Virus record (IMG/VR): IMGVR_UViG_3300030390_001877
Location: 68,130-132,129 of that record
DNA: 64,000 nt
Direction: 5' to 3' (one strand)
From: a virus
Position numbers and translations under genes: made by a program. Below the pieces are notes generated by a model that was not told where the DNA came from, did not search any database, and saw nothing but the letters and a program-made list of their open reading frames with translations. Numbering within the stretch: the first letter of the stretch is position 1; every line of letters starts with the position of its first letter. This document shows, piece by piece, positions 7,600 to 28,284 of this stretch.

Positions 7600-9687
7600 T
7601 TAAAACAAACGTTTTGAAGATTGTTTGCCCATAGAGGATTTCATCTTAGAGTATTGTGTGTTGCCCGAGGATAATTGTGGGATGGCTACTGCTTTGTGGA
7701 TTTTGGAAGCGCTGAGGTAATTAAAAGCTGAAGCTACTGTATCTCCGAAATCATCCTTTTTAGTTGTAGTGGATCTTTCTCCATCAAAACCTTCAAGTTG
7801 TTTCATTATGTAATTATAAGTTTTCTCTGAGAAAGTATTCTTAGCTATTTTAATAAGTCCATTCTCTGCTGCTGTTGCGAAGGGGAGAAATTTAGTTAGC
7901 TTATTTTTATTGATAGGGCAAGGGTCTTTCTTGAAAATAAAACCGTGTTCATTGAAGAATTTAGCTTGTTGATTCCAAAGAGATTTTCCTGCGGCAGCAG
8001 GGTCCTGAGGCGCTACGATGTAAACTTCATCACCGTCATACTCTGCCTGTTTAATCATTGTATTATCCCTATCACCAGACCTCTTATATATCGCCCCTTG
8101 TATATCATCTACTTCATCGTAAAAATCTTCATGATATTCACCTGCTAAAACATAATAACCGTCATGAGTCTTATACATCTTGATACAAGTTGTTGGATCA
8201 GGGTTTTTCTGCGAAGTTGTCCTTTCGGAAGCCCCGAAATCGTAAGCCCTAACAGCAAAAGCTTTAGAAGGTATCTTATCTATTTCCTGTAACCACTCCC
8301 TCTTAAAATACTTAGTCCCGAAAGCCATTTCAGCCCAACAACCGTGTAGTAGTTGTGCCCTGTCAATATCATTAAGACCTTCTAAGAATGCGAGGTAGGA
8401 TGGATTAATTTCCATCATGATCGGATTGTCGTATATAGTACCACTAACAAAAGAAAAGGATAGTATCTTACCTTCCCATCTTTCCTTAGGAATTTCCAAT
8501 CTAGTACCTAACTCTTCTCGTGAATTACCCCATATATACTCACCTGCTTCTTGTACAAAGTATCTGACTACTCCATCTTTTTCTGGGTCAGGAAAACCTT
8601 CATCATCTAAGTACCATGAGATCATATCCTTTATCTCGTGCGAAGGAGAAGGGTTACAACTTATTACCATTCTTGAGAAGTGTTTAGAAGGGGATCTTAG
8701 TCGGGACATGAAGTACTCTATCTGTTCCCATTCGAATTGTGTCTATTGTTGTTCAAAGAAGTTCGTTACTCTTCTTCCGTCTATAAAGACTGCCTTATAT
8801 CACTATAAGAGTTCAGACTATATCATCATCTACGTGAGATGCTGTGCGCTTCCACCCACTTAGGTGTACAGGTTTCATAATCCTTTCTAAAGGATCGTTT
8901 ACCTTAGTCGTTGCACCTTCAAACTGATTACTCAGTAAGCTTGGCTCAGAATTGTCTTTCGTAAAAGAGTTTCTCTGAATTCACACAGTTATCGATATGT
9001 ATCGCTACATAAAGGGGCACACTGTTTACCCTCATCTATACCAACAAATGTAAACTCTTGTCCCTGAGCATCCATCTTTGACCTAGCTACGTTCTCTGCT
9101 TGCTGGTATTTTATTTTAGCACCATTAGGAAATACTACTTCCATCTTATGATCTCTTATTGCCTTAGGTTCAGAACCTTTAGGCATCTGTTCGTAAATTG
9201 CTCTGGCGTTAGGCCAAAGTCCCCCTAATAACTGCGGGTTTGTTCTACGGTACATGATGCAGTTTGTCTTACCGTCATCTAAAAGCATTAGAGGGAGGTG
9301 ATTTAGTATGGTACTTTTCCCAGATCCTGCCAATAAATCTCTCTGGGACAGTTTCGAGTTCGTTACACTCTTCCACAGTTTCCTGTGTTGTCGGATCATA
9401 TCTTCTACTTATAAAAGTAGCCCTACGTTTCGAATTCACTTGAATCCTACTCTCAAAATGAGATGACCTCTACACCCATGAATTTAATCATTCGGCTCGG
9501 TATTGGCATATGATATAACATATCACTTAGCTTCCACCGAATTAGCAGGGGAGTTTATGGTGTGACCACAGGAATTTTAAGCCCCACCTATTACTAGTAT
9601 TTGAGTATCAGAAGCTCTTTTCAACATAAGAGCTTGCTTCTTACTTGCAGGAGAGAAAAAGGGTTTCTTTCCTTTCTGTTTTGTCAT
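7600..9687 (-). CDS. terL: Terminase large subunit, spliced: join(9687..9580, 9330..9028, 8742..7600), 517 aa
   Basis: Exon 1 MTKQKGKKPFFSPASKKQALMLKRASDTQILVIGGA + exon 2 AGSGKS... rebuilds Walker A (GGAAGSGKS); exon 2 ...FVGIDEG + exon 3 TQFEWEQIEYFMSRLRS rebuilds Walker B; exon 3 carries the RNase H-like nuclease motifs (AYDFG, KKDDFGD). Confidence 0.93.
8743..9027 (-). mobile_element. Group I intron 2 in terL (285 nt, no ORF), inserted just after the Walker B DEG
   Basis: 5' exon ends in U (GAG GGU) and intron ends in G (AACAAUAG); P GAAUUCAGAGAAA, Q AAUUCUGAGCC, R GUGCAACGACUA, S GAUAUAGUCUG; P7 GACUA/UAGUC; P3 CUGUGUG/CGCACAG; splicing restores the frame. Confidence 0.93.
9331..9579 (-). 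mobile_element. Group I intron 1 in terL (249 nt, no ORF), inserted inside Walker A
   Basis: 5' exon ends GGG GCU and intron ends AUUUAUUG; P1 GGUGGGGCU/GGUCACACC with U.G at the splice site; P10 UCCUGU/GCAGGA; P AAUUCGGUGGAAG, Q AAUACCGAGCC, R GUAGAGGUCA, S AAGAUAUGAUCC. Confidence 0.92.
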
Positions 9688-10493
9688 TTTATAAAATCCT
9701 CGTGTTTTTCTTTAAATATTTTCAATGCTTCAGGTTGTCTACTGCCTTTGCAAAATCTGCTTATCATAGATTCTGCTATACCTCGTTCAGATGAAATAAA
9801 TTTCAAAGATTTTTTGTTTATTAATCTATCTTCTATAATATCAACAACATCATGTAGACCTAGTTTAGTTGTAGGATGTTTTCTTTTTATGAAATCTCCT
9901 TTCTTGAAACCTGTTATACTAGATAACCTTCTACCTGACAACCCATCCCATAGTGTATCTGGACTGGATACAGTTAAGCCTAGATTTTCACATATACATT
10001 TATACTCTAATCCTGCATTAAAAAGAAATCCTACATATTTCCATTCATACTTGGTAAGGGAACTCAAGGTCTTCTCTTTTCCATAACTTTCTGCATAATA
10101 TTTTATAGTATTAAACTCTGAGGTAACCCACTGTAAATTGTACCACATATTATTATCTTTTGTATTATCTATATGGTCTATTACTAAACAAGAATTTTCA
10201 TCAGGAGTGTCCACTAAAAAATGTAAAGCTACTAACCTGTGTACCCTCCTGTGTTTGTATTCCCTATTGCCATGGGACATAGCTACCTCTTTATAACCAT
10301 CCTTATCTGTTTTAGGTTTAAGTATACGTTCTCTTACTTTCTTAACACCTTCTATTCTATGGCGATTAACCCAAGGAGTCTCTCTTTTCAAACTCTTAAC
10401 TCTTCCATAATTACTTATCTGATATTTACCTTCAAAGTCTTGGATATCTTTCCATTCTTCCTTAACAGGGAATGCTATGTTATTCCAAATCAT
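9684..10493 (-). CDS. Free-standing HNH homing endonuclease (NUMOD4 + HNH, I-HmuI-like)
   Basis: WKDIQDFEGKYQISNYGRVKS (NUMOD4); VHRLVALHF...IDHIDNTKDNNMWYNLQWVT (HNH); stop codon overlaps the terL ATG (ATGA). Confidence 0.92.
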   Translation of the reverse strand: MIWNNIAFPVKEEWKDIQDFEGKYQISNYGRVKSLKRETPWVNRHRIEGVKKVRERILKPKTDKDGYKEVAMSHGNREYKHRRVHRLVALHFLVDTPDENSCLVIDHIDNTKDNNMWYNLQWVTSEFNTIKYYAESYGKEKTLSSLTKYEWKYVGFLFNAGLEYKCICENLGLTVSSPDTLWDGLSGRRLSSITGFKKGDFIKRKHPTTKLGLHDVVDIIEDRLINKKSLKFISSERGIAESMISRFCKGSRQPEALKIFKEKHEDFIK

Positions 10494-13869: not shown

Positions 13870-14757
13870 TTAAACTCCCTCTCCAGAAAGTAATCCCTTC
13901 ACATAAGCAAGCTCGTCAGGGTTTCTCCATTGCAAAGTATTTACTGCCCACTGTACATAACCTCTGTCAGAAACAACACTCTCTTTCCAGCTACCTCCTT
14001 TCAGCTTACCAAACCCTACCACATCAAGTTGCTCTTCTTTCAAATAAGAGTACTCTTCTAAAAGTGTTTCTAGATAAGAAAGTTCCTCTTCTGAAAGGTC
14101 TGTGTTGTTGAAAGTGTATTCTACATAATCATAATCTTCAAGGATAATATCTTTCCAAGAGGTTCCTCTTTCATACTTCTTGCCTCCTTTACAGACAGTT
14201 GGATCATATAACAAGGTGTACGCTTCGTCAATAGTTAATTCGTTTTGAATAAGCATATGTTCTAAGACGAGTCCTGTTATAAAACAATCATATAGCGCAG
14301 AGTGCCAGTTCCCTTCAAAAGACTTCACTCTTTCATCTTGATCCAATCCAAACGTGTAGAAGAGGACACCCAGTTTATGAGAAGCCACTGTTCCTTTAGG
14401 GTATAACATTCTTGCAAGTTTTAATGTGCATAAACGTTTAATCCCTTCTGGAAAATAACTCTCTGGAAGAACAGCTTCTTCATAGGAAAGATTATGAGCA
14501 ACAACATAATCACTTTCAGCAAGAGAACACTTTGGTAACACAGCCTCTAACAGAGGCTTCCCTTTCACCATATCTTCTGTTATGTGATGAACGTTCATTG
14601 CTTCAAAGTCAATCTTCTGTTGCGGATCAACTACCTCCGAGTAAGACTCTTCTAAAACGAGATTGCTTCCAGAAGTTGTAAACTTTGCAATACCCATTTC
14701 GCAAATATTACCTTTCATAGATGCTGTTTCTGTGTCGATTATTGATATTTTATTCAT
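13870..14757 (-). CDS. DEDDh 3'-5' exonuclease (DnaQ / exonuclease X-like)
   Basis: IIDTET (Exo I), VAHNLSYE (Exo II), HSALYD (Exo III). Confidence 0.88.
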   Translation of the reverse strand: MNKISIIDTETASMKGNICEMGIAKFTTSGSNLVLEESYSEVVDPQQKIDFEAMNVHHITEDMVKGKPLLEAVLPKCSLAESDYVVAHNLSYEEAVLPESYFPEGIKRLCTLKLARMLYPKGTVASHKLGVLFYTFGLDQDERVKSFEGNWHSALYDCFITGLVLEHMLIQNELTIDEAYTLLYDPTVCKGGKKYERGTSWKDIILEDYDYVEYTFNNTDLSEEELSYLETLLEEYSYLKEEQLDVVGFGKLKGGSWKESVVSDRGYVQWAVNTLQWRNPDELAYVKGLLSGEGV

Positions 14758-15577: not shown

Positions 15578-15988
15578 CTAATAATTAAACACTTTTACAT
15601 GCTTATCTAATTTTGTCATATAGTCTATCATATCTTTAGTTCCTTTAGAAACACTATTCCAAAATGCTATAAGATGTGTCCCTGTACCACCCATTTCATG
15701 ATTCCGATCTATACCTGCTTTAGCGTTGTATTCTTTTCCAAACTTATTGACTTTTATGACAGCATCTGGTTTTGAAATGTCATCCCAGTCGGGTATAAAG
15801 TATTCTATCTTAACCCCTTCGTGTTTGTGTAACTCATACCACTTCTCTCCACAAGTATCTCCTCCTAAAGCTTTACCACATATGATAGTGATATTTTCTT
15901 TAGGGGTGTTTCTTGTCATGTGGTCTATACACTTAAAACCATACTCGAAGTTTTTAAAGTCTCTACCTCCTGCTACTATCAGTCTCAT
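15578..15988 (-). CDS. SLOG-superfamily protein (DUF2493/YspA-like)
   Basis: LIVAGGRDF...IICGKALGGD...AGIDRNHEMG...LIAFW..VSKGTKDMI. Confidence 0.8.
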   Translation of the reverse strand: MRLIVAGGRDFKNFEYGFKCIDHMTRNTPKENITIICGKALGGDTCGEKWYELHKHEGVKIEYFIPDWDDISKPDAVIKVNKFGKEYNAKAGIDRNHEMGGTGTHLIAFWNSVSKGTKDMIDYMTKLDKHVKVFNY

Positions 15989-17460
15989 TATAGTATCCCT
16001 TTCTCAGATAACCACTCTATTGCCTTCGTATGAGGTTTAATATGCGATTTAATATTTGTATGTTGTAAAGGGTATTTCAGGTGTATGAGGTCAACACTTG
16101 TAAAACGACTTAAAGCTACATAAGCACTATTAACACCCCAATCATTATCTTCATCTGTCATATCAAAACCCTTATAACTAATGTCTACAACAGCAGGAAC
16201 ATCAAGAGTACGACCTTGCATACGATGTATGCTAAAAGCTGCGGCTACTTTAACAGGGAGACAAACTGCCCTACCAATAACCTTACTATCTAATATAGCT
16301 TTCTCTACACCATCTTCTCCCTTTTCTGTAGATAAGAAAGATTCTCTTTGTTCAAACTCGAACATATCTACGAAGTGTGTTTCACCTACAGAAGGAAAAT
16401 GTATAAAAACCCCATCACTTAAACATTCCTCTACATAACCAAAACTTCCGTTACTGTAATCATCTGTATTAACCAAGGTGATTACAGGAAGACCTTTCTT
16501 CAAAATAAGATTCTCATCAACAGGACAATCTTTCATATTAAATTCTCCTGTAATCTTAGCTTTATATGAGAAAGGGGGCTCTGGGTTACTACGTACTGCC
16601 ATAGCGTTTGCTTCATCCACACGTTTATTAGTTGTAGTTACTAAAGGTAACCCCTCTGGTAATGCCCAAGAGTGACGTCTATTAATCCACTTAATACAGT
16701 TAGGGTAACGCTCTTCTTGTCCATAACGCATTACATTCAAGCACTCTTGGAATGTCTTTTCCGAAGTACGTAAAGGTTTAGTAAAATTATGGACTATGAA
16801 ATCTAACTTCTTAAAAGGTTTACTTTCAAAAAGAAGATGGCTTCCATATTTACTGTTCAAATAATTCTTATCTTGTTGATTTAAAACAGGGAGTAATTGA
16901 AGAAAATCTCCCTGCAAGATAAGTTTTATATTACGTTTCTTACGTTTACCTTTGATAGGTTTATTAAATCTTTCTAATCGCAACCTGATTAATTCAAGCT
17001 GATCTGGATTTAACATACCACACTCTTCAACTACAACATACTCGACAAGATCTGTTGGTGCGAATAATCCTGTACAATAAGGTTTAACTTTAGAAACATC
17101 CTTATCTTTAAACATACCTAAGCTTAAAGAGAAAACCCTGTGAGCTGTTCCATCCCCTCCTTTATTATTAAATAGTATAGAGTTAGCGATACCTGTTGTC
17201 GCACAGATGATTAACTTATCTTTTAAATATGCTTTCAAAGCTTCTAAGGTTACACTCTTACCAAAACCAGCAGGGGAAAGATTGATTACATGTCCTTTAT
17301 CCTTATCAACACAATCTCTCACATAATCTTTCTGCTCTTCTGTGAGGGGATATTTACCGTCATGTAAATACCCTTCTAAGAACTCTTCTAAACCTTCACT
17401 CAAATCTTCTCCTCCAAACGTTTCAAATGTTCTAAATAACTCTCTGCTCCAGAAAACCAC
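15988..17460 (-). CDS. SF1B helicase (Dda/Pif1/RecD-like)
   Basis: PAGFGKS Walker A, CATTGIA, VVEECGM, GDFLQLLPV, SIHRMQGRTL, AYVALSR. Confidence 0.9.
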   Translation of the reverse strand: MVFWSRELFRTFETFGGEDLSEGLEEFLEGYLHDGKYPLTEEQKDYVRDCVDKDKGHVINLSPAGFGKSVTLEALKAYLKDKLIICATTGIANSILFNNKGGDGTAHRVFSLSLGMFKDKDVSKVKPYCTGLFAPTDLVEYVVVEECGMLNPDQLELIRLRLERFNKPIKGKRKKRNIKLILQGDFLQLLPVLNQQDKNYLNSKYGSHLLFESKPFKKLDFIVHNFTKPLRTSEKTFQECLNVMRYGQEERYPNCIKWINRRHSWALPEGLPLVTTTNKRVDEANAMAVRSNPEPPFSYKAKITGEFNMKDCPVDENLILKKGLPVITLVNTDDYSNGSFGYVEECLSDGVFIHFPSVGETHFVDMFEFEQRESFLSTEKGEDGVEKAILDSKVIGRAVCLPVKVAAAFSIHRMQGRTLDVPAVVDISYKGFDMTDEDNDWGVNSAYVALSRFTSVDLIHLKYPLQHTNIKSHIKPHTKAIEWLSEKGIL

Positions 17461-17624
17461 TCTCTATCAAAAGTATATTCATCAGAAAACTCTCCTGAAT
17501 AATATAACTCCCACTCAAGGGTTTTTATTCCAGAAGGATCATCTTCAAAGAATGTACCTTTTTCAATATATTCTTCTGCCCATAATAATCCTTCCATCCA
17601 AGGTGATTTTCTCATCAATCCCAT
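17400..17624 (-). CDS. Hypothetical protein
   Basis: Short ORF overlapping its neighbours in the operon. Confidence 0.55.
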   Translation of the reverse strand: MGLMRKSPWMEGLLWAEEYIEKGTFFEDDPSGIKTLEWELYYSGEFSDEYTFDREWFSGAESYLEHLKRLEEKI

Positions 17625-18175: not shown

Positions 18176-20059
18176 AAATCCTCCCTCCAAACTAATTCAC
18201 CTTTCGCAATAGATTCTAACAATCCACGGAATTCATAACTTCTACATAGGCTATCTACATAAACACGGCAATTCTCTCCACGAATATATTTCCCATCAAT
18301 ATACTTGTTAGCATCATCCATTGTCAAGAAAATATTATGTGTTTCCCAGCGAGGGTTCCCGTGTAGGTAGCTCCATCCTCCGTGAGGATCTATTTGTTCA
18401 AGGGTTTGGTACGCATCGTATAAATTCGTATGACACTCTAAGAAATCTTTCTTAGAAAGGCAGTATGTATTTTTAAACAAATATCTCCACTCTTCTTCAT
18501 CATAATCATCTACAAATTCTTCTACGCTATCATAACCACTTTCATCACAAGAATTGTAAAGCTGATGTAACTCTGCATATTCTTCTTCGTAACCCCAATC
18601 AACCTTCTTAGCTTGAACTAAGTATATAGGAGCTGCTGTACAAAGATTATCTTCGTGAAGAATATGATGTTTGTGTAAGCGTGTTTGTAACTTTTCATAA
18701 GACTCTTTATTCATAATCTACTCTCCTGTAAATAACCATTTCAAATCCAACCATTCAAAGGTTAACTCTCCGAATATAAAACTTGATAACAAAGCTGTTA
18801 CCATAAATAGCACCCAACCTGCAATAAGATATACAGATTCTAAGCCGCCTCTATCTTTGTGTATACTGTAAACACCAACCCCATATAAAGCAACAATACC
18901 CCACCAAGGAGCATGTACTCCAACTAGCCAACCTATTAAAATTATGAATATAGAAGGTAAAATCATTCTTCTATCCCCTCTTTAATAGATTCATCTATAT
19001 TATTCCAAAATTTCTGTCCTTGGGGTGTGTATACCCATACAAAAGCATTAACTAAACAATCATCCCAATCCCAAGACCACCCTTTATCTACCTCATACCC
19101 CCTATAAGCCTTTGTAAGCTCTTCTAAAGCAGCTACCTTCCCTATCACACTAGATACTTCTTTAAATAGTGCTGTGTTGTTTATAAGTGCCTTATTTTCG
19201 ATATTTGATTCTTGTTTCATGTTAGCTCCTTCCAAACAGTAGACACCACTTCAACAGATTCACATTTCACCCAACCATAATTATCTTCTAAACGACATTT
19301 ATAACTATCGTAAGAATTATCTCCTTCAAACTCTTGCATCCAATAACCTACTAAATCTTCATCTACTTCACAGATGTCTTCTTTTTCAAGATTGTAATAC
19401 TTTGCGTTAGGTGAAACCTTTATAATATATCTTGTTTGCGCTATACCTTTTCGTAAGTTTACAAAAGTTGCTTCAACGTACTCTGCACACTCTAACATTT
19501 GGTGTAATTGTTGTTTATTAAAAATCATTCAATTTCTCCTCGTATAATTCAATAAAATCTTTCCAGCACATAACACCTTTCCCACCAAACTCGTTTAAGT
19601 AAGTGACAACTCCTGCTACACGATTACCTTCCTTGTCAACAGAATCTTCTTTTAAAGAGAGAACTGTTACTTGTTGGAGAATTTTTCTTTTGTAAATCAT
19701 AATTCGTTCTCCATTAAAAGTTTCATTGCTAAAGGTATTAATCTCTCTTCATCTTGAGGTAAGAAACCTTTCAAATCATAATCACCTGCATAAACAATCC
19801 ACGTTGATAAAAGTTTTTCTTCGTTTTCCCAAGATTTTATTTCTGCAGTGTTTCCTTTGAAGAAGAATCTAACTGTTGGGTTCATGTGATCATTTTCTTC
19901 ATCGTTGTCTAACATTTCACATAAAACTAACTCATCTTCTTTACGAACACCTAATTTATACAGACTGCACTCTTTCTTACAACCCCACACTTCTGCAAAG
20001 AACTTGTGACCATTAGGTAGGTGTCTAAGATTTGCGTCAAACATATTCATTCTCCTCAA
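18172..20059 (-). CDS. Run of six hypothetical proteins (18172-18714, 18718-18966 membrane, 18963-19235, 19217-19528, 19518-19700, 19697-20059)
   Basis: Tightly packed ORFs with overlapping stop/start codons and GGAG RBS. Confidence 0.7.
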
Positions 20060-20097
20060 AATATTAACTCAACAAAAAGAACCTTTCAGAAACGAAA

Positions 20098-20145
20098 AAT
20101 CCCTCCAATAGATATGAGTCTACGGGAAGGATTATTTGTTGTCAA
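20098..20145 (-). promoter_or_regulatory. Promoter whose -10 lies in the loop of a terminator-like hairpin
   Basis: TTGACA-17-TAGACT; stem AATCCTTCC/GGAGGGATT then TTT. Confidence 0.65.
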
Positions 20146-20174
20146 GGGTAACTTAAATAAATTAATTAATTTGT

Positions 20175-20636
20175 TTAATCTCTAAAACCTATCAGGTCAG
20201 TACCATCATAAATATTACTATCATTGAAACGTTGAGCTTCCGAGATAAACTCTCTATCCTCAAAAGCTTCTCTCATTTTTCTAACAATAATACGTTTAAC
20301 ATCTCTGTGAAGATTTATAATCTTATCCCCCTCCTTGATTGAGTTGTCAGAGTAGTCCTCTGCATAAAGAGATACTTTATCCATGTGTATATTCTTATAT
20401 TTTGCTTCAAGAGAACCATCTTTTTCTATAAAGTTACCTATCACACCTTTGATAAGTGTTTCAATTGCACTTACTAGTATATTAACTTGAACTGAACCGT
20501 CATCAAGATACTCTATTGTTGATGCTGGAAACATATCGTACCAATCCCCTTTTAAGAAGTGATCTGGGTCTTGTCTTACTAGGCATTCTAAAATGTAAGT
20601 GCTTTCTTTACAAAACACTTCATTACGTATTTTCAT
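20175..20636 (-). CDS. Hypothetical protein
   Basis: 153-aa ORF with AAGGA RBS. Confidence 0.7.
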   Translation of the reverse strand: MKIRNEVFCKESTYILECLVRQDPDHFLKGDWYDMFPASTIEYLDDGSVQVNILVSAIETLIKGVIGNFIEKDGSLEAKYKNIHMDKVSLYAEDYSDNSIKEGDKIINLHRDVKRIIVRKMREAFEDREFISEAQRFNDSNIYDGTDLIGFRD

Positions 20637-20684
20637 ATAATTATCCTTAGTGTTAAATTGTTACTTGTAAATAAAACCATATTC

Positions 20685-22016
20685 CTAAAATTCAATCTTG
20701 TAGTGAAAGTTATCTGTGTTACCAAAAGTTTCTACCCAAGATTTCCTCATTATGCTTATTAACTCTGCTTGATTACTCTTTTCCACAATAAAACTGTCGT
20801 GGTAACCTAGCGCAACAAAACCTTTATTCATAGAATGAACTAAAACTTTCTCACAAATATCAGAATCTAGGTTTTGAAGTATTTTGTAATTGTAACTTCC
20901 TTTACCAAAAAACTTAAGCTCCTTATTGTACTCTAAGAGTTTATCCACTACATGTTCACAGTTCATTTTTGTAATCCCTAAACCTTCTAGGAAATCTTCA
21001 TCACCACTTTTAACTATATTATACAAAGCTAGTTTGGCGTTCCTATTACTAACACAATTTATAATACACATCAAAGCTAGTTTACAGAAACCTCTTAGAT
21101 TTTTCTTACCTTTAAGTAATTCGCTTAGTTCAGAATCATACATAGAGTAGGGGTCTTTGCCGCCTAAGTCCACTCCTTGTAGCGTGCCTATGATATTAGT
21201 GTGTAAAGCTACTAAATCAACTTCTGTAACCTTATTACCGCTTATTTCTATAGTCTTTCTTAATTCTTTTCTGGCTGTCTGGAAAGATCCCACTTCATAC
21301 CATCTACCACAACCAAACAAATCATCCATATAAACTCTTTTATAGAATAATTTATGCTCTTTTCCGTCTATAGTGATTACAAACTTGTCTATAAAGTTGT
21401 TATACCTTTTAACCACCTCCCTTCTAAGCTTAACCATCTTAAACTTAGTAAGCTTTTCGTATTTATGTCTAACTTTGTTTACTTTATAACAAACCTCTAT
21501 CTCTGGTGAATCTGATCTTGGGTCTTTTGTGAGGTTTAAGATTTTATCGTCTACTAAAGATAGTAAACTTTCAGAAAATATGACTCTAGAAGATATATTA
21601 ACATCCTCTTTCATATCTTTATAACCTAGGTATGTTGTAAGGAATCCATCTTCGTCTAATGTATCTACCAATTCGCACATTCTATCTTTGTTTAACTTAA
21701 GTTTACTCTTATTAATCTTGTTAAACTTAGTGTAAGATTCCCATCTCCTAGGAAACCAAACACCTTGTTTATTAATCTTTTTGGCTTTAGCAATACATAT
21801 AGCCAACATATACATCTCATTTTCAAACTTTTTCAATGGTAGTTGTGACAGATCAGCTATAGCTCCTACAACTTTGTTAAGGTAGTTAGCTTTGTAGGGT
21901 GTGTAATATAAATTACCTACCGTGTTTATCAGTACCCAAGACCTCTCTTCTTTCTTTAATTCCTTTAGTGTTAACATTGTTTTGTTGATCTCCGTAGTAA
22001 TAACTGTAAATATCAA
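20685..22016 (-). CDS. Compact single-subunit polymerase-like protein (T7 RNAP / PolA palm motifs)
   Basis: DDLFGCGRWY, EVDLVALH, RGFCKLALM, YHDSFIV in the order of T7 RNAP DxxGR, motif A, motif B and motif C; start may be MLTLKE a few codons in. Confidence 0.6.
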   Translation of the reverse strand: MIFTVITTEINKTMLTLKELKKEERSWVLINTVGNLYYTPYKANYLNKVVGAIADLSQLPLKKFENEMYMLAICIAKAKKINKQGVWFPRRWESYTKFNKINKSKLKLNKDRMCELVDTLDEDGFLTTYLGYKDMKEDVNISSRVIFSESLLSLVDDKILNLTKDPRSDSPEIEVCYKVNKVRHKYEKLTKFKMVKLRREVVKRYNNFIDKFVITIDGKEHKLFYKRVYMDDLFGCGRWYEVGSFQTARKELRKTIEISGNKVTEVDLVALHTNIIGTLQGVDLGGKDPYSMYDSELSELLKGKKNLRGFCKLALMCIINCVSNRNAKLALYNIVKSGDEDFLEGLGITKMNCEHVVDKLLEYNKELKFFGKGSYNYKILQNLDSDICEKVLVHSMNKGFVALGYHDSFIVEKSNQAELISIMRKSWVETFGNTDNFHYKIEF

Positions 22017-22247
22017 TGTCGTTTATTTTGATGTAGTCTATACACTTTATAACATATAAAGCTACACTTAATTTACCTCGTACCTTAGATATATGATTTA
22101 ATAAAGGTTGGGGTATATGTAAATTTATCATAGGATTCCTTAGTAATAATATAATACTTATAAGAAGTAAGTAACCAACTCGGAAGAAATAGGTTAGACA
22201 AACCCTTACACCTCGGGACTTACAAGAGATATGACCCCCCTAATTTA

Positions 22248-22487
22248 CTATTCTGGAAAATCATCAAAATTGCTTGTTATTTCCCCTACAATAAGACCTA
22301 CTTTAACTCCGAATACGTGAAGCAAAACCTCCTCTATCTTCTCTATAGAGACACCATGATCTCCTTTCAGTATTATAGATAATTGTTTTCTGGTTATTCC
22401 TCCTGCAGAGCATATATCATTATAACTAAAACCTGACTCATCTTTCTGATCTTTCATAATTTGGGACAAATGCTTTCTTAAGCTCAA
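22248..22487 (-). CDS. XRE/Cro-like helix-turn-helix protein
   Basis: SYNDICSAGGITRKQLSIILKGDHGVSIEKIEEV. Confidence 0.8.
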   Translation of the reverse strand: MSLRKHLSQIMKDQKDESGFSYNDICSAGGITRKQLSIILKGDHGVSIEKIEEVLLHVFGVKVGLIVGEITSNFDDFPE

Positions 22488-22510
22488 ATTTAATCCTCCT
22501 GTAAAACTAT

Positions 22511-22539
22511 ATTATATCACATAGTATACTTATTGTAAA
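22511..22539 (-). promoter_or_regulatory. Promoter for the HTH gene
   Basis: TTTACA-17 nt-TATAAT. Confidence 0.65.
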
Positions 22540-22600
22540 CCACTTCACCCTACATTACGTATACTTGTTGCATCTTCCTGTAGTATAAATATATCACTCC

Positions 22601-23817
22601 TCACAACCTAAAACACTTATCAACAACAGCATCCAATGCAGTAGTAGCCTTCCACTCAGAGTACCACCAATAATAAAAGCTATGTCCTTCAGAGTTCTTC
22701 CCTCCAACATAATTGTACGCACCTCTTACTTCCTTGTGAATATTAGCTCTCACTTCTTCTGCAAGGAATTTCCTATTCTCCTCACCAACCATATTCAATG
22801 TTAAAAGATTCCACCCATTACAAGGTATTTTCTGAGAGTAACCTTCCACAACAACAGATGCCACCTCCAAAGCAGATTGCTTCTCCTCTTTAGAAAGAGA
22901 TACAGCGTTCAAGCCAAACCCTAAAGCAACAATCACCCCTAAAGATAACACCCCTTTAAAATGTTTCTTGTTAAGCTTAAAATTCGATAAATTCATCACA
23001 TGACACTCCTCTTCGTTGTAACACTTCTACTAAAGGGGTTATTTCCCGCTTGTAGTCCTCTGTGTGACGTTTTCTAATCTCTTTGATACGAGATATCACC
23101 TTCTCAGAAACAACGTCTTGTAGCTCTGCTACGGAAGGATTCTCCTGTTGATACAAGTATTCTTTACAAGCAAGGAATTCTTCTTTGGGGTAACATTTAC
23201 CCAGATACTCTAATCCCTCAGCAGGTAAGAAGTTCTCGGGAATATACCCGTTCTCATGGTCAAACAACCCCTCTGGGTAAAAATCAAAATAACTGTCTTT
23301 AAAAACAATCTCGCCGTCAGCATCATAAGAAACCCCAGTTACTCCCTCAGGCCATTCCTCAACATGCTTACAAATATAAATCAAATCTTTATTAAACATT
23401 CACCATCTCCTTAATCTGTTTCTTTAAATCTGCACACATTGTAATCAACTGTTTCTCTTTGTCAAGAAGTATTTCACGAACATTATTATTTTCTTCAGGT
23501 GTTGTCACTCTAAAAGACCTCACTTCCAGCCAGTAACCCTCTTCCTCTCGATTACTCTTATGAACAACATCATACCACATATCTTCTTTTATGAAGGTGT
23601 TGTAGTTAACCATAGGGTGTATACCTTCCACTAACTGGACAAGGTGTTTGTTAAGCTCGAATATATCTATCCCAAGATGTATTTCCACTACAAGAACAGA
23701 ACTACCGTCTGAATAGTCTCCCTCAGATATAATCAATAATTCCCGTTGTACCTTTTCTAGTTCATATTCCTGATCCTTGAGGGATCTTGTTAAGTCATAT
23801 AACTTTTGAGTGTTCAT
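22601..23817 (-). CDS. Three hypothetical proteins (22601-22999 with TM/signal-like segment; 22977-23399; 23392-23817)
   Basis: Overlapping ORFs with RBS. Confidence 0.7.
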
Positions 23818-23847
23818 ATTATTCTCCTAAATAATTAACGTTCAATA

Positions 23848-23914
23848 AGAATACATCTTCTAAATTACAGTGTCAACCTCTAATATTGATTATTTTTAGG
23901 TAAGGTGTTATAAT
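23848..23914. promoter_or_regulatory. Back-to-back divergent promoters
   Basis: Minus: TTGACA(23876-23871)-17-TATTCT; plus: TTGATT(23886)-17-TATAAT(23909-23914). Confidence 0.7.
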
Positions 23915-23981
23915 ATTTACTTGCAGAGGGTTATCTATAACTTCTGTTATACCCACAAACTTTTATAAGGAATATTTATAA

Positions 23982-24338
23982 ATGTCTCCTGAAGTGTTGG
24001 TGGTTTTGTTCAAGTATGGATGGATACCTGTCTCAGGGTGGTTTCTTTGGTTAAAGCAACAAGATAAGATCAAACTAGACAACACATACACTAAAGAAGA
24101 AACTAAAGAACAGATCAAGTCACATATAGATCCTCTTAAGACTTCTCATGAACTAAAACACCAAAATCTAGAAGAAAAACTAAACTCTATTCAAAGTATG
24201 TTGACTATATTAAACAGTCAACGTCAAGAAGATAAAGAAAAGAGTGATGCAAAAGACGCAGCTTTATTAGAAGTGTTATCTAAGATGCAAACTAGTATAG
24301 CTGTAATAGAATCTAAAATCGACAAAAAGGAAAAATGA
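23982..24338 (+). CDS. Membrane-anchored coiled-coil protein (lysis-cassette type)
   Basis: N-terminal hydrophobic helix then coiled coil; first gene of the holin island. Confidence 0.6.
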   Translation: MSPEVLVVLFKYGWIPVSGWFLWLKQQDKIKLDNTYTKEETKEQIKSHIDPLKTSHELKHQNLEEKLNSIQSMLTILNSQRQEDKEKSDAKDAALLEVLSKMQTSIAVIESKIDKKEK

Positions 24339-24409
24339 TAATGCCTAACGACCTAACTCCTCCAGATAAAAAAGATAAACCAAAAACACCGCCAGATAAA
24401 CAAGAGTAA
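24335..24409 (+). CDS. 24-aa Pro/Lys/Asp-rich peptide MIMPNDLTPPDKKDKPKTPPDKQE (not in the ORF track)
   Basis: ATG overlaps the upstream TGA (ATGA coupling); fills the gap to the next gene. Confidence 0.5.
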   Translation: MIMPNDLTPPDKKDKPKTPPDKQE

Positions 24410-24414
24410 GCTTC

Positions 24415-24897
24415 GTGACCATCAGTTACATGCTGCAGGTGGTAGATTATTATGATGTTGTGTTCTTTGCAGTTATATTTCTACAAGAACACATAAAAGA
24501 TTTTATCTCTACTGTAGTATGTTTCCTGATGAGTTATACAAGCATGTTACTGATACCTTTCATAATGATAAACTACGGGTATGACTTCTACTCCTCTGCA
24601 ATGTTCTATGAAGCGATATTCTTCTTCCTGTCTGTATTCTTAATAGGAAGTAAAGTTGGAGTGATTCTTTGCATAACAACTTTTACGGGATTTTTTATAA
24701 ACTTTGTGGGTTATATGACCCCTACTGGAGATTTCTATATCTGGTACAGAGACTCTTATGGGTTATTGAACGTTATTATGTTCGAAATATTAGTTTGGTC
24801 ATGTATAGTAAACTCAAGATTAAAACCTTTTATAGATAAAATAAACCTGAAAATAACAAACTATTTAGAAAATAAATCGAGGAGAAAAGAATGTTAA
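24415..24897 (+). CDS. Multi-pass membrane protein
   Basis: Four to five hydrophobic segments, basic C-terminus. Confidence 0.7.
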   Translation: MTISYMLQVVDYYDVVFFAVIFLQEHIKDFISTVVCFLMSYTSMLLIPFIMINYGYDFYSSAMFYEAIFFFLSVFLIGSKVGVILCITTFTGFFINFVGYMTPTGDFYIWYRDSYGLLNVIMFEILVWSCIVNSRLKPFIDKINLKITNYLENKSRRKEC

Positions 24898-25364: not shown

Positions 25365-26228
25365 ATGGCATCGTCCGAAGAATTAGAGAGTATCGAGTGG
25401 GCTTCTACACTTGAATACGATAACACAGTAGATGAAGCAAATAGAACAAATATAATACCTGAAATAAAAACAAGCGGATTAAAAGATAACCAACCTCTCC
25501 CCCGACAATGGCTTAATCAGCAATTCTATAATATTTGGCAAGTATGTCTATCCTTTCAATCAGACTTTGATGCTTTGGAGATTGATTTATCTGACTTACA
25601 ATCGCAAATAGATGCTAACAAAGATTCTATTACTACGAACAAATCCGAACAAAATGTTGTTAATAATGATTTACAATCTCAGATAGACGCTTTGGAATTA
25701 ATTATTCTTGAGAAGATTTTCTCTGTCGGTAGTACTTGGAATACTAAAACAGAAGAAGACCCTGCCGTTAGGTTTGGTTTCGGGACTTGGGTGAAGCTGG
25801 ATGGAAGATTTATAGCAGGTAGTAGTGAAACTGACGCTGCATTCCAACCTCTAGGAGCTTTAGGTGGTAATAAGAATCACACCCATACAGACAATTTCTC
25901 TGTAGCCTCTCATACATTGACAGAAGCAGAAGTACCTACTTATGTCCATAATCATGAATTCAGAGATAGATATCATGCAGAAGATAGTACATCCTCTGAT
26001 ATGGTACAAGCTACTAATAAAGAAAATATGCCAGCAGGTTACAACGGTAACGCAGGTAGTGGGGTTAGTGATTTAGACAATAACCAATGGTTATATTATG
26101 ATACTAACACAGAAAATGCTACTTTTGGCGGGGGTGGTGGTCACTCGCACGTGTTAAATGGTAATATCGATTCTGCAAGTAACCTACCTCCTTATGCAGT
26201 TTTCCACGTTTGGGAGCGTATATCTTAA
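25365..26228 (+). CDS. Baseplate / short tail-fibre protein with T4 gp10-like C-terminal domain
   Basis: PAVRFGFGTWVKLDGRFIAG...GGNKNH...HTLTEAEVP...NLPPYAVFHVWERI. Confidence 0.75.
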   Translation: MASSEELESIEWASTLEYDNTVDEANRTNIIPEIKTSGLKDNQPLPRQWLNQQFYNIWQVCLSFQSDFDALEIDLSDLQSQIDANKDSITTNKSEQNVVNNDLQSQIDALELIILEKIFSVGSTWNTKTEEDPAVRFGFGTWVKLDGRFIAGSSETDAAFQPLGALGGNKNHTHTDNFSVASHTLTEAEVPTYVHNHEFRDRYHAEDSTSSDMVQATNKENMPAGYNGNAGSGVSDLDNNQWLYYDTNTENATFGGGGGHSHVLNGNIDSASNLPPYAVFHVWERIS

Positions 26229-26277
26229 TGGGTAAAATTATTAGAAGAATTTATAACAACAACAAAGGAATTTTAAG

Positions 26278-28284
26278 ATGTCAATAATTTTAAGTGATGT
26301 TTATACAGGAAGGGTTGATACGACAGACCCTAATTATCCAAACGGTAAACCTCGTAACAAAGTGGGTGCTGTAGATGGGACAGGTACTCCTTATGAAGAG
26401 AAATACTTTCAGGATATAAGTGGTGCTTTCCAAGCTTTACTTGTCGAAGGAGGTATTACTGCATCAGGTAACCCTGATAACGCTAATGTTTCTGATATAC
26501 GTGATGCTATCCTGAAGATGATCCGAAAACCCTTAGTTTTGAAGGTGTTTCAATCCCCTACAGATGGTTTGACGGAGATTAACACGCGCACCTTGCTTGG
26601 TGGTGAGGTGTATGAAATACGAAAAGTTAGTGATAACAGCTTTGCTACTATTTACAGTGATAAAGAGGGTTTAAACCCAATCACACAAGACGGCACGAGT
26701 AATGTTTCAGGTAGTGATGGGGTTGTTGAGTTTTATATTGCCGATGGGGATTATTACGTTGACGTTGGAGTTGTTTCAAAATCTTTTAGTGTTGGTCACG
26801 CTTCGGACTTGTCCTCTATTTATATATTTAATACTGTTGAAGGTTTTAAATCCAGCAAGATTGAATTTCCAGACGGTAAAACTATTCACATAAAAGAGCG
26901 TGATTCTGATTTCATCAAGATAACAGGAACCTCTACAGCTAACAATTTTAGCGTAATTGCTAGTAACGAAATAGACCAGAGTGTAGAGTATGTACCAAAT
27001 TTAGGGGTAGCTAGTGTTTACGGTTTAGGCGCTACAGCAGCGGCAGCTAATTTTGCTCAATCTAATTACAGCGCCATAGATTTTGGTAATTACGAGTACA
27101 CTACAACCGAAAAAATATCAATATCGAATGGGGTAGCTATCCACTCTCAGGGCGCTAAGATTTTGAAAAATTATGACGGTATAGGCATTGAGTTTACCAA
27201 TCAATCTGCAACAGTAGATGTATTTGGTCGATTGGATGTCATAGGTTTTGGTGATTTTGCGGGTAATGGTTTGGTTGAGTCAGTATCTCCACTAGCTCAC
27301 GGCATAAGCATAAAAAGTAGTCGCGTAAGAGTTCATGGGGCACTTTGGTCGTATAATCATGTGGGTGATGCTGTTAACTTTGACTCTGATAACCACGGCA
27401 ACTCAAACAAGTCTGACTTTAATGAGTTGAGAGGGAACTCATCAAACGGGTATGGTATACGGTGTACAGGAACGAGTGATGATACGTCCGTTTGGCGTAT
27501 TGGTTTTTACGCACAGGGAAACTTTAAATCGGGCTTTTCCACATCATCTGATTTTATGGGGCGCAACTGGAATGGTTTAATTTATAGTGAAAGCAATTGC
27601 AACGACACAACATCTACAGAGGTGGACATTGAAAAGTTGCGCGAGTCTGACTTGGTGATATATGCAGAAGCAGGTGTTGGTTCTTTGGAGGTTATGCTGG
27701 GTGAAAACACCAGTAACTTAGAGATTACAAGTCTGCGGTCTAATCTTGATAGTGACAACTCTCTGGCTCAAAATAACAGATGGAAAAGAGGCTCGCTAGC
27801 TGTTAACCCAGGGGTTTCTGGTGGTTCTAGAGTTGGTGAGGTGGGTGGTTTTAAGTTCGGAAGAGCTAGGGGTGGGAATGGTGGCGAGGGGGTGAAGGTT
27901 CCCATGAAGGGTTCGGACTCAACATTTGGACATTTTGTGGCAGTAAACAGCCAATCATCCCCATTTACCCCCTATCTAGGATTTGAGACAGAGAATCTAT
28001 CATCGTTTATCAGGGTGGGGGACCAAGATTTTAGAGTTAATTCTAACGGTGATGACTTTATACACAAGACAGAGACGGACTTCGAGATAGGGACAACTAA
28101 TACGGCTTACAAAACCAAAGTCAATATGTTTGGTAATGTAGCTATCTTTGTAAGGTCATCAAGTCCAGAGGGGCAGCAACCCGCTTCAACTGGGTCTATA
28201 TGCTTGGTAAATGGTGGTGGGGCTGGCACGTCATTCTATGTCAAAGAATCTGGAACAGGGAGCACGGGGTGGGTTGGTAAATAA
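26278..28284 (+). CDS. Tail fibre / tailspike receptor-binding protein
   Basis: N-terminal anchor (DPNYPNGKPRN...DGTP...SGNPDN), Gly/Asn/Ser-rich beta-helix-like body, C-terminal YVKESGTGSTGW. Confidence 0.85.
   Translation: MSIILSDVYTGRVDTTDPNYPNGKPRNKVGAVDGTGTPYEEKYFQDISGAFQALLVEGGITASGNPDNANVSDIRDAILKMIRKPLVLKVFQSPTDGLTEINTRTLLGGEVYEIRKVSDNSFATIYSDKEGLNPITQDGTSNVSGSDGVVEFYIADGDYYVDVGVVSKSFSVGHASDLSSIYIFNTVEGFKSSKIEFPDGKTIHIKERDSDFIKITGTSTANNFSVIASNEIDQSVEYVPNLGVASVYGLGATAAAANFAQSNYSAIDFGNYEYTTTEKISISNGVAIHSQGAKILKNYDGIGIEFTNQSATVDVFGRLDVIGFGDFAGNGLVESVSPLAHGISIKSSRVRVHGALWSYNHVGDAVNFDSDNHGNSNKSDFNELRGNSSNGYGIRCTGTSDDTSVWRIGFYAQGNFKSGFSTSSDFMGRNWNGLIYSESNCNDTTSTEVDIEKLRESDLVIYAEAGVGSLEVMLGENTSNLEITSLRSNLDSDNSLAQNNRWKRGSLAVNPGVSGGSRVGEVGGFKFGRARGGNGGEGVKVPMKGSDSTFGHFVAVNSQSSPFTPYLGFETENLSSFIRVGDQDFRVNSNGDDFIHKTETDFEIGTTNTAYKTKVNMFGNVAIFVRSSSPEGQQPASTGSICLVNGGGAGTSFYVKESGTGSTGWVGK

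Follow-up and report, generated by a model that had tools for sequence, protein, structure and literature searches.

A divPolA2-type accessory polymerase and its conserved three-gene cassette in a marine myovirus genome

Results

We analysed a window of 64,000 nucleotides (positions 68,130 to 132,129 of IMG/VR record IMGVR_UViG_3300030390_001877, forming the second half of this 132,129-bp virus record from marine metagenomes), and we focus on a polymerase gene on its minus strand at 20685..21977. On sequence evidence, the encoded protein is a member of divPolA2, a family already described computationally (TV-Pol in 2008, divPolA2 in 2024), and an accessory enzyme of its phage, encoded as the last gene of a conserved cassette that also holds a helix-turn-helix (HTH) gene and a gene for a 72-amino-acid (72-aa) protein. 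The enzyme is very probably catalytically active, because its predicted catalytic residues are invariant among relatives, and it may, as a tentative best explanation, start nucleic-acid chains at DNA sites for the phage replisome. The first-pass annotation of this locus had proposed an uncharacterised minimal polymerase, perhaps one that makes origin primers or acts as a helper transcriptase; both ideas are already on offer in the literature. Fold and invariant residues bear out a minimal polymerase with an intact active site in the superfamily of PolA and T7 RNA polymerase (RNAP); the family, however, is not undescribed, being divPolA2 (PMC11348598) and related to TV-Pol (PMC2579912).

A minimal polymerase gene with invariant active-site residues

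The 443-aa open reading frame (ORF) on which that proposal rested exists at 20685..22016 (minus strand) and opens at the first in-frame TTG, 22016. Because close and distant relatives all start at Met14 of this ORF, the start is likely ATG 21977, which gives a divPolA2/TV-Pol-type minimal family-A polymerase of 430 aa plus stop (20685..21977); the 13 aa added by the TTG start are absent from relatives. Residue numbers below follow the 430-aa protein. All five peptides quoted in the first-pass annotation are present: DDLFGCGRWY at residue 218, EVDLVALH at 252, RGFCKLALMCIIN at 295, LQNLDSDI at 367 and YHDSFIV at 392. Across 86 aligned relatives, whose identity to the window protein ranges from 19 to 81%, residues G224, R225, R240, D254, Y277, R295, K299, H393 and D394 are invariant (86 of 86), while conservation reaches 90% or more at E252, Q368, D371 and S372. 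The invariance of these key residues indicates that the polymerase motifs are real and under selection. They comprise the GGR hairpin (T/DxxGR-type, with G224-R225 in strand 223-228 and the R225 codon at 21303-21305, minus strand), motif A (E252-x-D254, with the invariant D254 at 21216-21218, minus strand) and motif C (H393-D394-S395, with D394 at 20796-20798, minus strand), together with R240, D-P-Y277, motif B (R295/K299/M303/N307) and LQ368-x2-D371-S.

The residues expected to bear on the choice between ribonucleotides (NTPs) and deoxyribonucleotides (dNTPs) are mixed. At the steric-gate position of Pol I the window protein has His259 (His in 76 and Gln in 7 of the 86 relatives); at the position of Klenow F762 and T7 RNAP M635 its clade has Met or Leu (M303 in the window protein); at the equivalent of T7 RNAP Y639 it has Asn307 (Asn in 56, Phe in 15 and Tyr in 14 relatives); and motif C in its clade is HDS, as in T7 RNAP. 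The R/K/M spacing and HDS(F) match to T7 RNAP, and the Asn at the Y639 position, had been read correctly in the first pass.

Family searches give little help from annotated libraries. The polymerase has no significant match in Pfam (none even at E ≤ 1, and none to PF00476), NCBIfam or PADLOC; sequence searches of the PDB, whether by single protein or by profile, returned no match, a scan of viral contigs with the single window protein returned none, and no Pfam domain was found in family members of 520-560 aa. The full protein length matches phrog_4756 ('unknown function'; E 9e-91). A search of 1.84 billion cluster representatives (clusters at 50% identity) gave 1,831 at E ≤ 0.001, and nearly all of the best 150 of these 1,831 matches are 400-560 aa long. 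The family is near-universal in a group of 115-140-kb marine phages. A further member is found on Thioclava electrotropha plasmid pTElox9 (NZ_CP053563.1 34925-35860; L016, L021; profile E 2.8e-52), with an N-terminus apparently truncated by an IS21 insertion and with a DNA methyltransferase gene and a DEAD-box helicase gene adjoining.

Fold of the polymerase core and the N-terminal domain

An AlphaFold2 model made with the 86-sequence alignment (pLDDT 96, pTM 0.91) was compared with known structures using VIA and Foldseek, and both identify a polymerase core at residues 157-430 (20688..21509, minus strand) with palm plus fingers and, apparently, a much-reduced thumb. For residues ~157-430, and on a scale on which unrelated folds start near Z 6, VIA gives Z 15.1 with apicoplast Pol (236 residues aligned, root-mean-square deviation (rmsd) 4.0), 14.1 with Aquifex Pol I, 13.7 with yeast mitochondrial RNAP (mtRNAP), 13.6 with Pol nu, 13.4 with Klenow, 12.8 with T7 RNAP (248 residues, rmsd 3.4), 12.7 with T7 DNA polymerase (DNAP), and 7.8 with N4 RNAPII and N4 mini-vRNAP. 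Every top Foldseek match against the PDB is a PolA. The similarity detected by VIA is confined to palm plus fingers, and at the site of the thumb the model has a single 15-residue helix (182-196) between the N-terminal domain and the GGR hairpin. The structural check proposed in the first pass, against T7 RNAP, N4 vRNAP and PolA, thus found the right palm-plus-fingers fold (Z 12.8, 7.8 and up to 15.1). As modelled, the core matches family-A DNA polymerases and T7/mitochondrial RNA polymerases about equally, the two being effectively tied, so that 'T7-RNAP-like' is too narrow a description: the superfamily holds, but the specific likeness to T7 does not, because family-A DNA polymerases match the fold equally well or better.

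The N-terminal domain (residues 1-156; 21510..21977, minus strand) gives pLDDT 87 when folded alone and contains an invariant Gly118 in an L-x2-x-G-Y/F-I wing motif. Its structural matches are of winged-helix type only (CodY, SarA/MarR, PadR, the winged helix of ORC/Cdc6, and TFE), and the model suggests, weakly and at the level of topology only, a winged-helix-like domain. These 156 residues contain no exonuclease domain or remnant among their structural matches, in agreement with the first-pass annotation.

Membership of divPolA2 and relation to TV-Pol

Yutin et al. (2024, Virol J 21:200, PMC11348598) describe divPolA2 as an extra divergent PolA beside the phage's regular DNA polymerase, sometimes with two to three paralogues per genome and with variable gene neighbourhoods. 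According to the same source, divPolA2 proteins have an active palm and an N-terminal globular domain, lack a canonical thumb and an exonuclease, and match DNA polymerases plus mitochondrial or N4 RNA polymerases in structure; the family was first seen in Rheinheimera barbaviruses, and its representative is AUR84708 of Vibrio phage 1.063.O (MG592441.1). We assign the window protein to divPolA2 because the profile and BLASTP match AUR84708 and because a barbavirus protein is among the structural matches in BFVD. The family profile matches MG592441 with E 2.1e-57 at 25475-26680 (minus strand; profile positions 43-423), within the AUR84708.1 coding sequence (25469-26761), and BLASTP of the window protein against AUR84708 gives E 1e-11, with 23% identity over 213 aa. 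The window protein is also like divPolA2 in its length (~430 aa), its invariant palm Asp pair (D254 and D394), its lack of an exonuclease and its separate N-terminal domain, and the window phage is like divPolA2 phages in that the enzyme is additional to a regular PolA and has a second paralogue in the genome. AUR84708 has Glu/Thr/Tyr/FDE at the discriminating positions, whereas the window protein belongs to a sub-clade with His/Met/Asn/HDS. The passages of PMC11348598 consulted here describe neither a cassette of an HTH gene and an overlapping small ORF nor a winged-helix reading of the N-terminal domain.

The TV-Pol family was defined by Iyer, Abhiman and Aravind (2008, Biol Direct 3:39, PMC2579912) as polymerases of 400-600 aa from transposons and viruses, with a core that comprises an Arg hairpin, two palm Asp residues and fingers with a conserved Asp and RxxxK, without nuclease, and with a bihelical coiled-coil thumb module and an optional N-terminal domain. 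TV-Pols are often linked to resolvases or transposases, are extra to an intact normal replication set, and were predicted to be primase-polymerases (PMC2579912). Within the record of phage Ma-LMM01, the sole candidate of our profile in a hidden Markov model search (E 0.019) lies inside gp030, a hypothetical protein adjoining IS605-type transposases. With hhalign, the family alignment against gp030 and four homologues gives E 8.2e-5 (probability 61%, 172 columns, all motifs in register), and against the single gp030 sequence E 0.0023 (78 columns). The family profile against single T7 RNAP, T7 DNAP and the phage's own PolA gives E 0.21, 0.57 and 0.13 over 31-39 columns, none of them significant, and the alignment to T7 RNAP is in the wrong register. 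These comparisons argue, with moderate strength, for a remote but specific link of the window family to TV-Pol. Shared with the gp030 clade are His at D+5, Asn at K+8, the LQ...DS helix and an HDG/HDS motif C, and the window protein contains the TV-Pol residue set (G224-R225 in a strand, D254, D394, D-P-Y277 and R295-x3-K299). It differs from TV-Pol in that the N-terminal domains do not align, that of TV-Pol (TV-PolN) being predicted as all-helical (PMC2579912), and, in gene context rather than in structure, in that no D5-type helicase, resolvase, integrase or transposase gene adjoins the window gene. At the place expected for the bihelical coiled-coil thumb, the model has a single short helix.

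CcPol of SCCmec (Bebel et al., 2020, PMC7581432; for CcPol-MP see also Rice, 2022, bioRxiv 10.1101/2022.12.02.518924) is a TV-Pol and a dNTP-using polymerase that primes de novo only with its partner MP; it strongly prefers dNTPs, and according to PMC7581432 no other TV-Pol has been characterised. The window protein is like CcPol in being a truncated family-A polymerase with, as it appears in the model, a shortened thumb; CcPol belongs to a mobile element, in which genes for a small partner and a helicase accompany it. CcPol keeps E710 and F762 of Pol I (as E174 and F225), whereas the window clade has His and Met/Leu there; CcPol keeps an exonuclease remnant, whereas the window protein has a winged-helix-like domain instead; and MP, a single-stranded DNA-binding protein with an OB fold, is encoded downstream of CcPol, between it and a helicase, whereas the conserved small gene of the window lies upstream and overlaps the polymerase start. 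Downstream of the window polymerase lies a gene for a 153-aa protein (20175-20636; phrog_14156) with no significant match in Pfam, NCBIfam or PADLOC.

With T7-like RNAPs, enzymes of which T7 RNAP and mtRNAP also prime DNA replication, the window protein has in common the palm-plus-fingers fold, the T/DxxGR, A, B and C motifs, HDS and the Met at the M635 position; it differs from them in being half-size, in lacking the T7-type N-terminal promoter-binding domain, and in having Asn in place of Y639 and His in place of G542. With family-A DNA polymerases (Klenow, Taq, T7 gp5 and apicoplast Pol) it shares the catalytic Asp pair, the Arg hairpin, the R/K of the O-helix and the Gln of the Q-helix; it differs in having neither a 3'-5' nor a 5'-3' exonuclease, in its apparently much-reduced thumb, and in the replacement of the steric-gate Glu by His and of the O-helix Tyr by Asn.

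An accessory enzyme in a phage with its own replication genes

The phage is of myovirus type, with tail sheath and baseplate genes, and the 93-bp terminal repeat of the record probably reflects circularisation by assembly. Its genome encodes a 782-aa PolA (G000:C1:42325-44673), the sole PF00476 match, and a polymerase exonuclease subunit (phrog_192; 13870-14757 of the window, minus strand) nearly 40 kb from the PolA gene, from which the replicative polymerase is predicted to be a split two-gene enzyme. It also encodes a 1,025-aa primase/helicase (G000:C1:39203-42280; L013:1203-4280) that matches phrog_239 in two stretches; the central segment of this protein (aa ~371-729) matches terminase-like phrogs and may be an intein or inserted domain. 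A second phrog_4756 paralogue of 429 aa lies outside the window (G000:C1:21545-22834, minus strand; L012:2545-3834; phrog_4756 E 1e-112); its core shares 27% identity with that of the window copy, and it has motif A 'YDYKGFEP', with Glu at D+5, and motif C 'HDD'. The second paralogue lacks an overlapping upstream ORF, and just upstream of it is a GIY-YIG-like ORF of 97 aa. Given that a PolA, an exonuclease subunit, a primase-helicase and a second divPolA2 paralogue are all encoded by the phage, the window polymerase is, as judged from gene content, accessory, and a role for it as replicative polymerase or as sole primase is ruled out by the first three of these. The window gene lies inside a co-directional early operon, with a Dda/PIF1-like superfamily 1 (SF1) helicase gene (15988-17460) 3.2 kb downstream, and no recombinase, transposase or flanking repeats adjoin it.

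Elsewhere in the genome, at window 7600-8709 and 9684-10493 (minus strand), are a terminase ORF (369 aa) and, just upstream, a gene for an HNH endonuclease; of the 642 profile positions of phrog_979, the large terminase ORF matches 285-629 only, and a split gene, or one that a homing element interrupts, is possible. Far from the polymerase gene, G000:C1:7004-7716 contains four copies of ATAATTCCTATTTA, ~215-260 bp apart on one strand, an arrangement that suggests a repeated regulatory or origin-like region.

A conserved three-gene cassette

By position and conservation, the polymerase gene is the last of three genes in a conserved cassette, which is shared at 42-53% identity between the window myovirus and a siphovirus-like contig, L005; genes further downstream of the polymerase are also common to L005. 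The first gene encodes a 79-aa HTH protein of Cro/C1 (XRE) type (22248..22487, minus strand), which confirms the HTH gene seen beside the polymerase in the first pass. Its matches are weak (HTH_26 at E 0.009 and HTH_3 at E 0.21, neither of which reaches its Pfam cut-off; phrog_8994, E 4e-10; 'transcriptional regulator' phrogs, E ~1e-3), and it is 42% identical to an HTH_3-flagged gene in the same position of L005. The proposed role of the HTH protein as regulator of the polymerase is plausible, given that HTH gene, small ORF and polymerase gene are conserved together.

The second gene encodes the 72-aa protein (21913..22131, minus strand) and overlaps the polymerase start by 65 nt, a probable case of translational coupling. 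The protein shares 44-53% identity with the one encoded at the corresponding place in L005 and has relatives in databases at 81-82% identity (P0162, P0163); it has no match in Pfam, NCBIfam or PADLOC. Its resemblance to ribbon-helix-helix proteins is an unverified pattern in sequence alone, and we do not apply that label. A complex prediction for the polymerase and the 72-aa protein scored 0.01, which gives no verdict and is evidence neither way. An overlapping small ORF upstream of the polymerase is also present in phage contig L007, in bacterial locus L017 and in phage ICP1, where ORF99 overlaps gp100 by 44 nt.

Upstream of the cassette we find a sigma70-like promoter (22539-22511, minus strand; TTTACA-17-TATAAT with TG, 11/12) and, over it, operator-like GTATAC-cored direct and inverted repeats (22523-22537 and 22551-22570); the promoter and operator roles at 22511..22570 are suggested by matches to consensus. 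Between the HTH gene and the 72-aa gene is a 116-bp spacer (22132..22247; GC 0.353), which contains -10-like A/T words and, at 22152-22169, a short palindrome, and which possibly holds an internal promoter or operator. No Rfam match was found in 19500-24500, and no terminator-like site was found at the cassette. The first-pass annotation had read 22020-22240 as an AT-rich stretch that could be an origin. Neither part of that reading survives: the GC content of the stretch is 0.317, compared with 0.323 in the gene and 0.344 in the region, and the stretch is mostly coding, being occupied by the 72-aa ORF, and has no iterons. An origin at this locus is not supported. The survey of gene neighbourhoods suggested at the same time shows a cassette conserved in L005, with its layout found in ICP1, and no evidence of an origin beside the gene.

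Relatives in other phages and in bacterial islands

Three settings outside the window bear on function. In Vibrio phage ICP1 (NC_015157.1 52702-54780; L029), gp100, a 555-aa protein annotated as hypothetical, is a strong family member (E 1.2e-68), and the layout of gp98-gp100 is like that of the window: a sigma70 promoter, ORF98, ORF99, gp100. The early theta-origin coverage peak of ICP1 is reported to lie close to 60 kb, and gp100 (53.1-54.8 kb) lies within several kb of it; the comparison is coarse, and the coordinates of the paper may be those of another isolate.

G001 (IMGVR_UViG_3300036546_000088; L019, L024, L025) is a complete podovirus genome of 27.7 kb in which a 523-aa divPolA2 is the sole polymerase-like gene, with no match to PF00476 or PF03175. 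It carries a ~75-nt element with a TATATAGAAT core in four copies on the late-gene strand (near 75-165, 17530-17620, 19287-19375 and 23705-23795), each in the order AGAGAAcATATTATATAGAATAtAA, a small CCCTT/AAGGG hairpin, AAGGGTaGGTTyAATAAA. Three of the four copies lie ~200-225 nt upstream of the next large ORF, and two of the four contain an exact TATAAT; the element could be a phage-specific promoter or a promoter of host -10 type.

Bacterial members are found in islands of ~10-19 kb flanked by serine recombinases, in Pseudoalteromonas sp. A601 (L017, 9500-19800) and Vibrio vulnificus (L018, 800-20200). Among the genes of these islands are tail genes of tape-measure, baseplate-hub and Dit-like type; no replication gene was recognisable in the regions examined, and no head gene was recognised among the genes scanned. 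The islands may therefore represent satellites or elements like tailocins. In L018, a ~270-bp duplication with promoter-like boxes lies just upstream of the polymerase gene. An SF1 helicase gene shares an operon with the polymerase gene or lies nearby in three phage contexts: the window, L005 (where it is adjacent) and L007.

Discussion

Our best explanation, held tentatively, is that the enzyme is a low-processivity, short-product primase-polymerase that starts chains at DNA sites for the phage replisome. According to this proposal, the N-terminal domain would direct the enzyme to particular DNA sites, the enzyme would start nucleic-acid chains there, and the phage replisome would extend them, so that replication would be initiated as by T7 RNAP at the T7 origin and by CcPol-MP for SCCmec; the two small cassette proteins would keep polymerase expression early and tightly controlled. 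Support comes from the priming activity, with a small partner, of CcPol, the only TV-Pol assayed (PMC7581432); from the presence in G001 of a divPolA2 as sole polymerase-like gene; from the bacterial islands, in which the family stands beside serine recombinases with no replication gene recognised in the regions examined; from the recurrence of SF1 helicases nearby; and, coarsely, from the proximity of ICP1 gp100 to the early theta-origin peak.

A number of observations weigh against a primase-polymerase. The phage has a primase-helicase, so that general priming is not needed. The window clade lacks the ribose-discriminating Glu and Phe of CcPol, and hence the properties of CcPol are not simply transferable; moreover, CcPol alone does not prime (PMC7581432), and a partner for the window enzyme is at most putative. 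The winged-helix matches of the N-terminal domain are weak (VIA Z ≤ 5.8; Foldseek E of at least 0.07). Searches of the spacers beside the window gene and beside its relatives turned up repeats that resemble promoters or operators, but neither iterons nor any structure like an origin. The functions proposed for divPolA2 proteins are so far deduced. Yutin et al. (PMC11348598) favour a repair DNA polymerase or an RNA polymerase, and report variable gene neighbourhoods.

One of the roles raised by Yutin et al. (PMC11348598), an RNA polymerase, would make the enzyme a miniature DNA-dependent transcriptase, a helper for a subset of phage genes with the N-terminal domain as promoter-recognition module. 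The HDS motif C, the Met/Leu at the F762/M635 position, the absence of a Glu steric gate and the Z scores with mtRNAP (13.7) and T7 RNAP (12.8) would suit such an enzyme, as would, in the case of G001, the four-copy TATATAGAAT-core element on its late-gene strand, which keeps the idea alive for that phage. However, the Asn at the Y639 equivalent and the His in place of Gly at the steric gate do not, the N-terminal domain bears no relation to its counterparts in T7-like RNAPs (by its structural matches and by PMC11348598), T7 RNAP is matched by hhalign only at E 0.21 and in the wrong register, and the exact TATAAT in two of the four G001 copies suggests that the element may be a host-type promoter. 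A genome-wide search also gave no PF00940 match in the window genome, although control genomes in that search likewise gave no signal. The window genome contains no word of at least 16 nt that occurs three times and no multi-copy element of at least 18 bp, and sigma70 -35 and extended -10 words are enriched upstream of genes (TTGACAA 9-10-fold, TGTTATAA 6.6-fold). These results lead us to reject a T7-style promoter family in this genome, and they uphold the first-pass view of a phage that otherwise uses sigma70-type promoters. We consider a transcriptase unlikely. We are equally doubtful of a specialised DNA polymerase, dNTP-using and primer-dependent, that would repair phage DNA, fill its gaps or bypass its lesions; repair is the other role proposed by those authors (PMC11348598). 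That role accords with the family-A DNA polymerases as best structural matches, with the bulky steric-gate residue (His in 76 and Gln in 7 of 86) where RNA polymerases have Gly, with the Glu and the Pol I-like motif C (HDD or FDE) of the second paralogue and AUR84708, and with the strong dNTP preference of CcPol (PMC7581432). It leaves unexplained, however, the conserved DNA-binding-like N-terminal domain and the tight repressor-type cassette, as well as the presence of the enzyme as sole polymerase-like gene in small islands and in a complete phage of small genome; nor do nuclease, ligase or other repair genes accompany it consistently.

The gene could instead belong to a selfish mobile module, a self-replicating element of TV-Pol type within the phage genome whose polymerase copies the element and not the phage. 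TV-Pols have been proposed as replicases of replicative transposons (PMC2579912) and are found as additional genes in phages, Ma-LMM01 among them, adjoining transposases; the three-gene cassette is shared at 42-53% identity by a myovirus and a siphovirus-like contig, bacterial copies stand beside serine recombinases, and there are two paralogues per genome. We nevertheless judge a mobile module improbable: the window copy has no adjoining recombinase, transposase or flanking repeats, it lies within a co-directional early operon with further downstream genes also common to L005, and the near-universality of the family in 115-140-kb marine phages fits vertical inheritance. It is hardly credible, finally, that the polymerase fold has lost its catalytic activity and now serves as a structural protein or for DNA binding: although some PolA-like proteins of Bacillota elements have lost catalytic Asp residues, both palm Asp residues, the hairpin Arg and RxxxK are invariant in 86 of 86 diverse relatives.

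A more speculative proposal, to which we give little weight, is that the His/Met/Asn/HDS sub-clade might synthesise RNA and so be, among DNA-dependent RNA polymerases or primases of a single subunit, the smallest known; the winged-helix-like head, perhaps with help from the co-translated 72-aa protein, would target it to specific sites. The paired paralogues, that is, the window copy and the Glu/HDD type, might then split RNA-priming and DNA-extension roles between them, and so keep the ancestral primase-plus-polymerase duality proposed by Iyer et al. (PMC2579912).

For the window itself, the practical result is a corrected annotation, as a divPolA2/TV-Pol accessory polymerase cassette. The family is widespread, with members in small podoviruses, in islands of bacteria and in the phages of marine Vibrio, Aeromonas, Pseudoalteromonas and Shewanella, and the question of its function is directly testable in the genetically tractable cholera phage ICP1, which has the homologue gp100 with the same overlapping ORF. 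A very small polymerase for biotechnology could result. More broadly, the family represents the minimal catalytic core common to DNA polymerase I and T7-type RNA polymerases, and how its members choose their substrate and start chains would therefore bear on the divergence of both enzyme classes.

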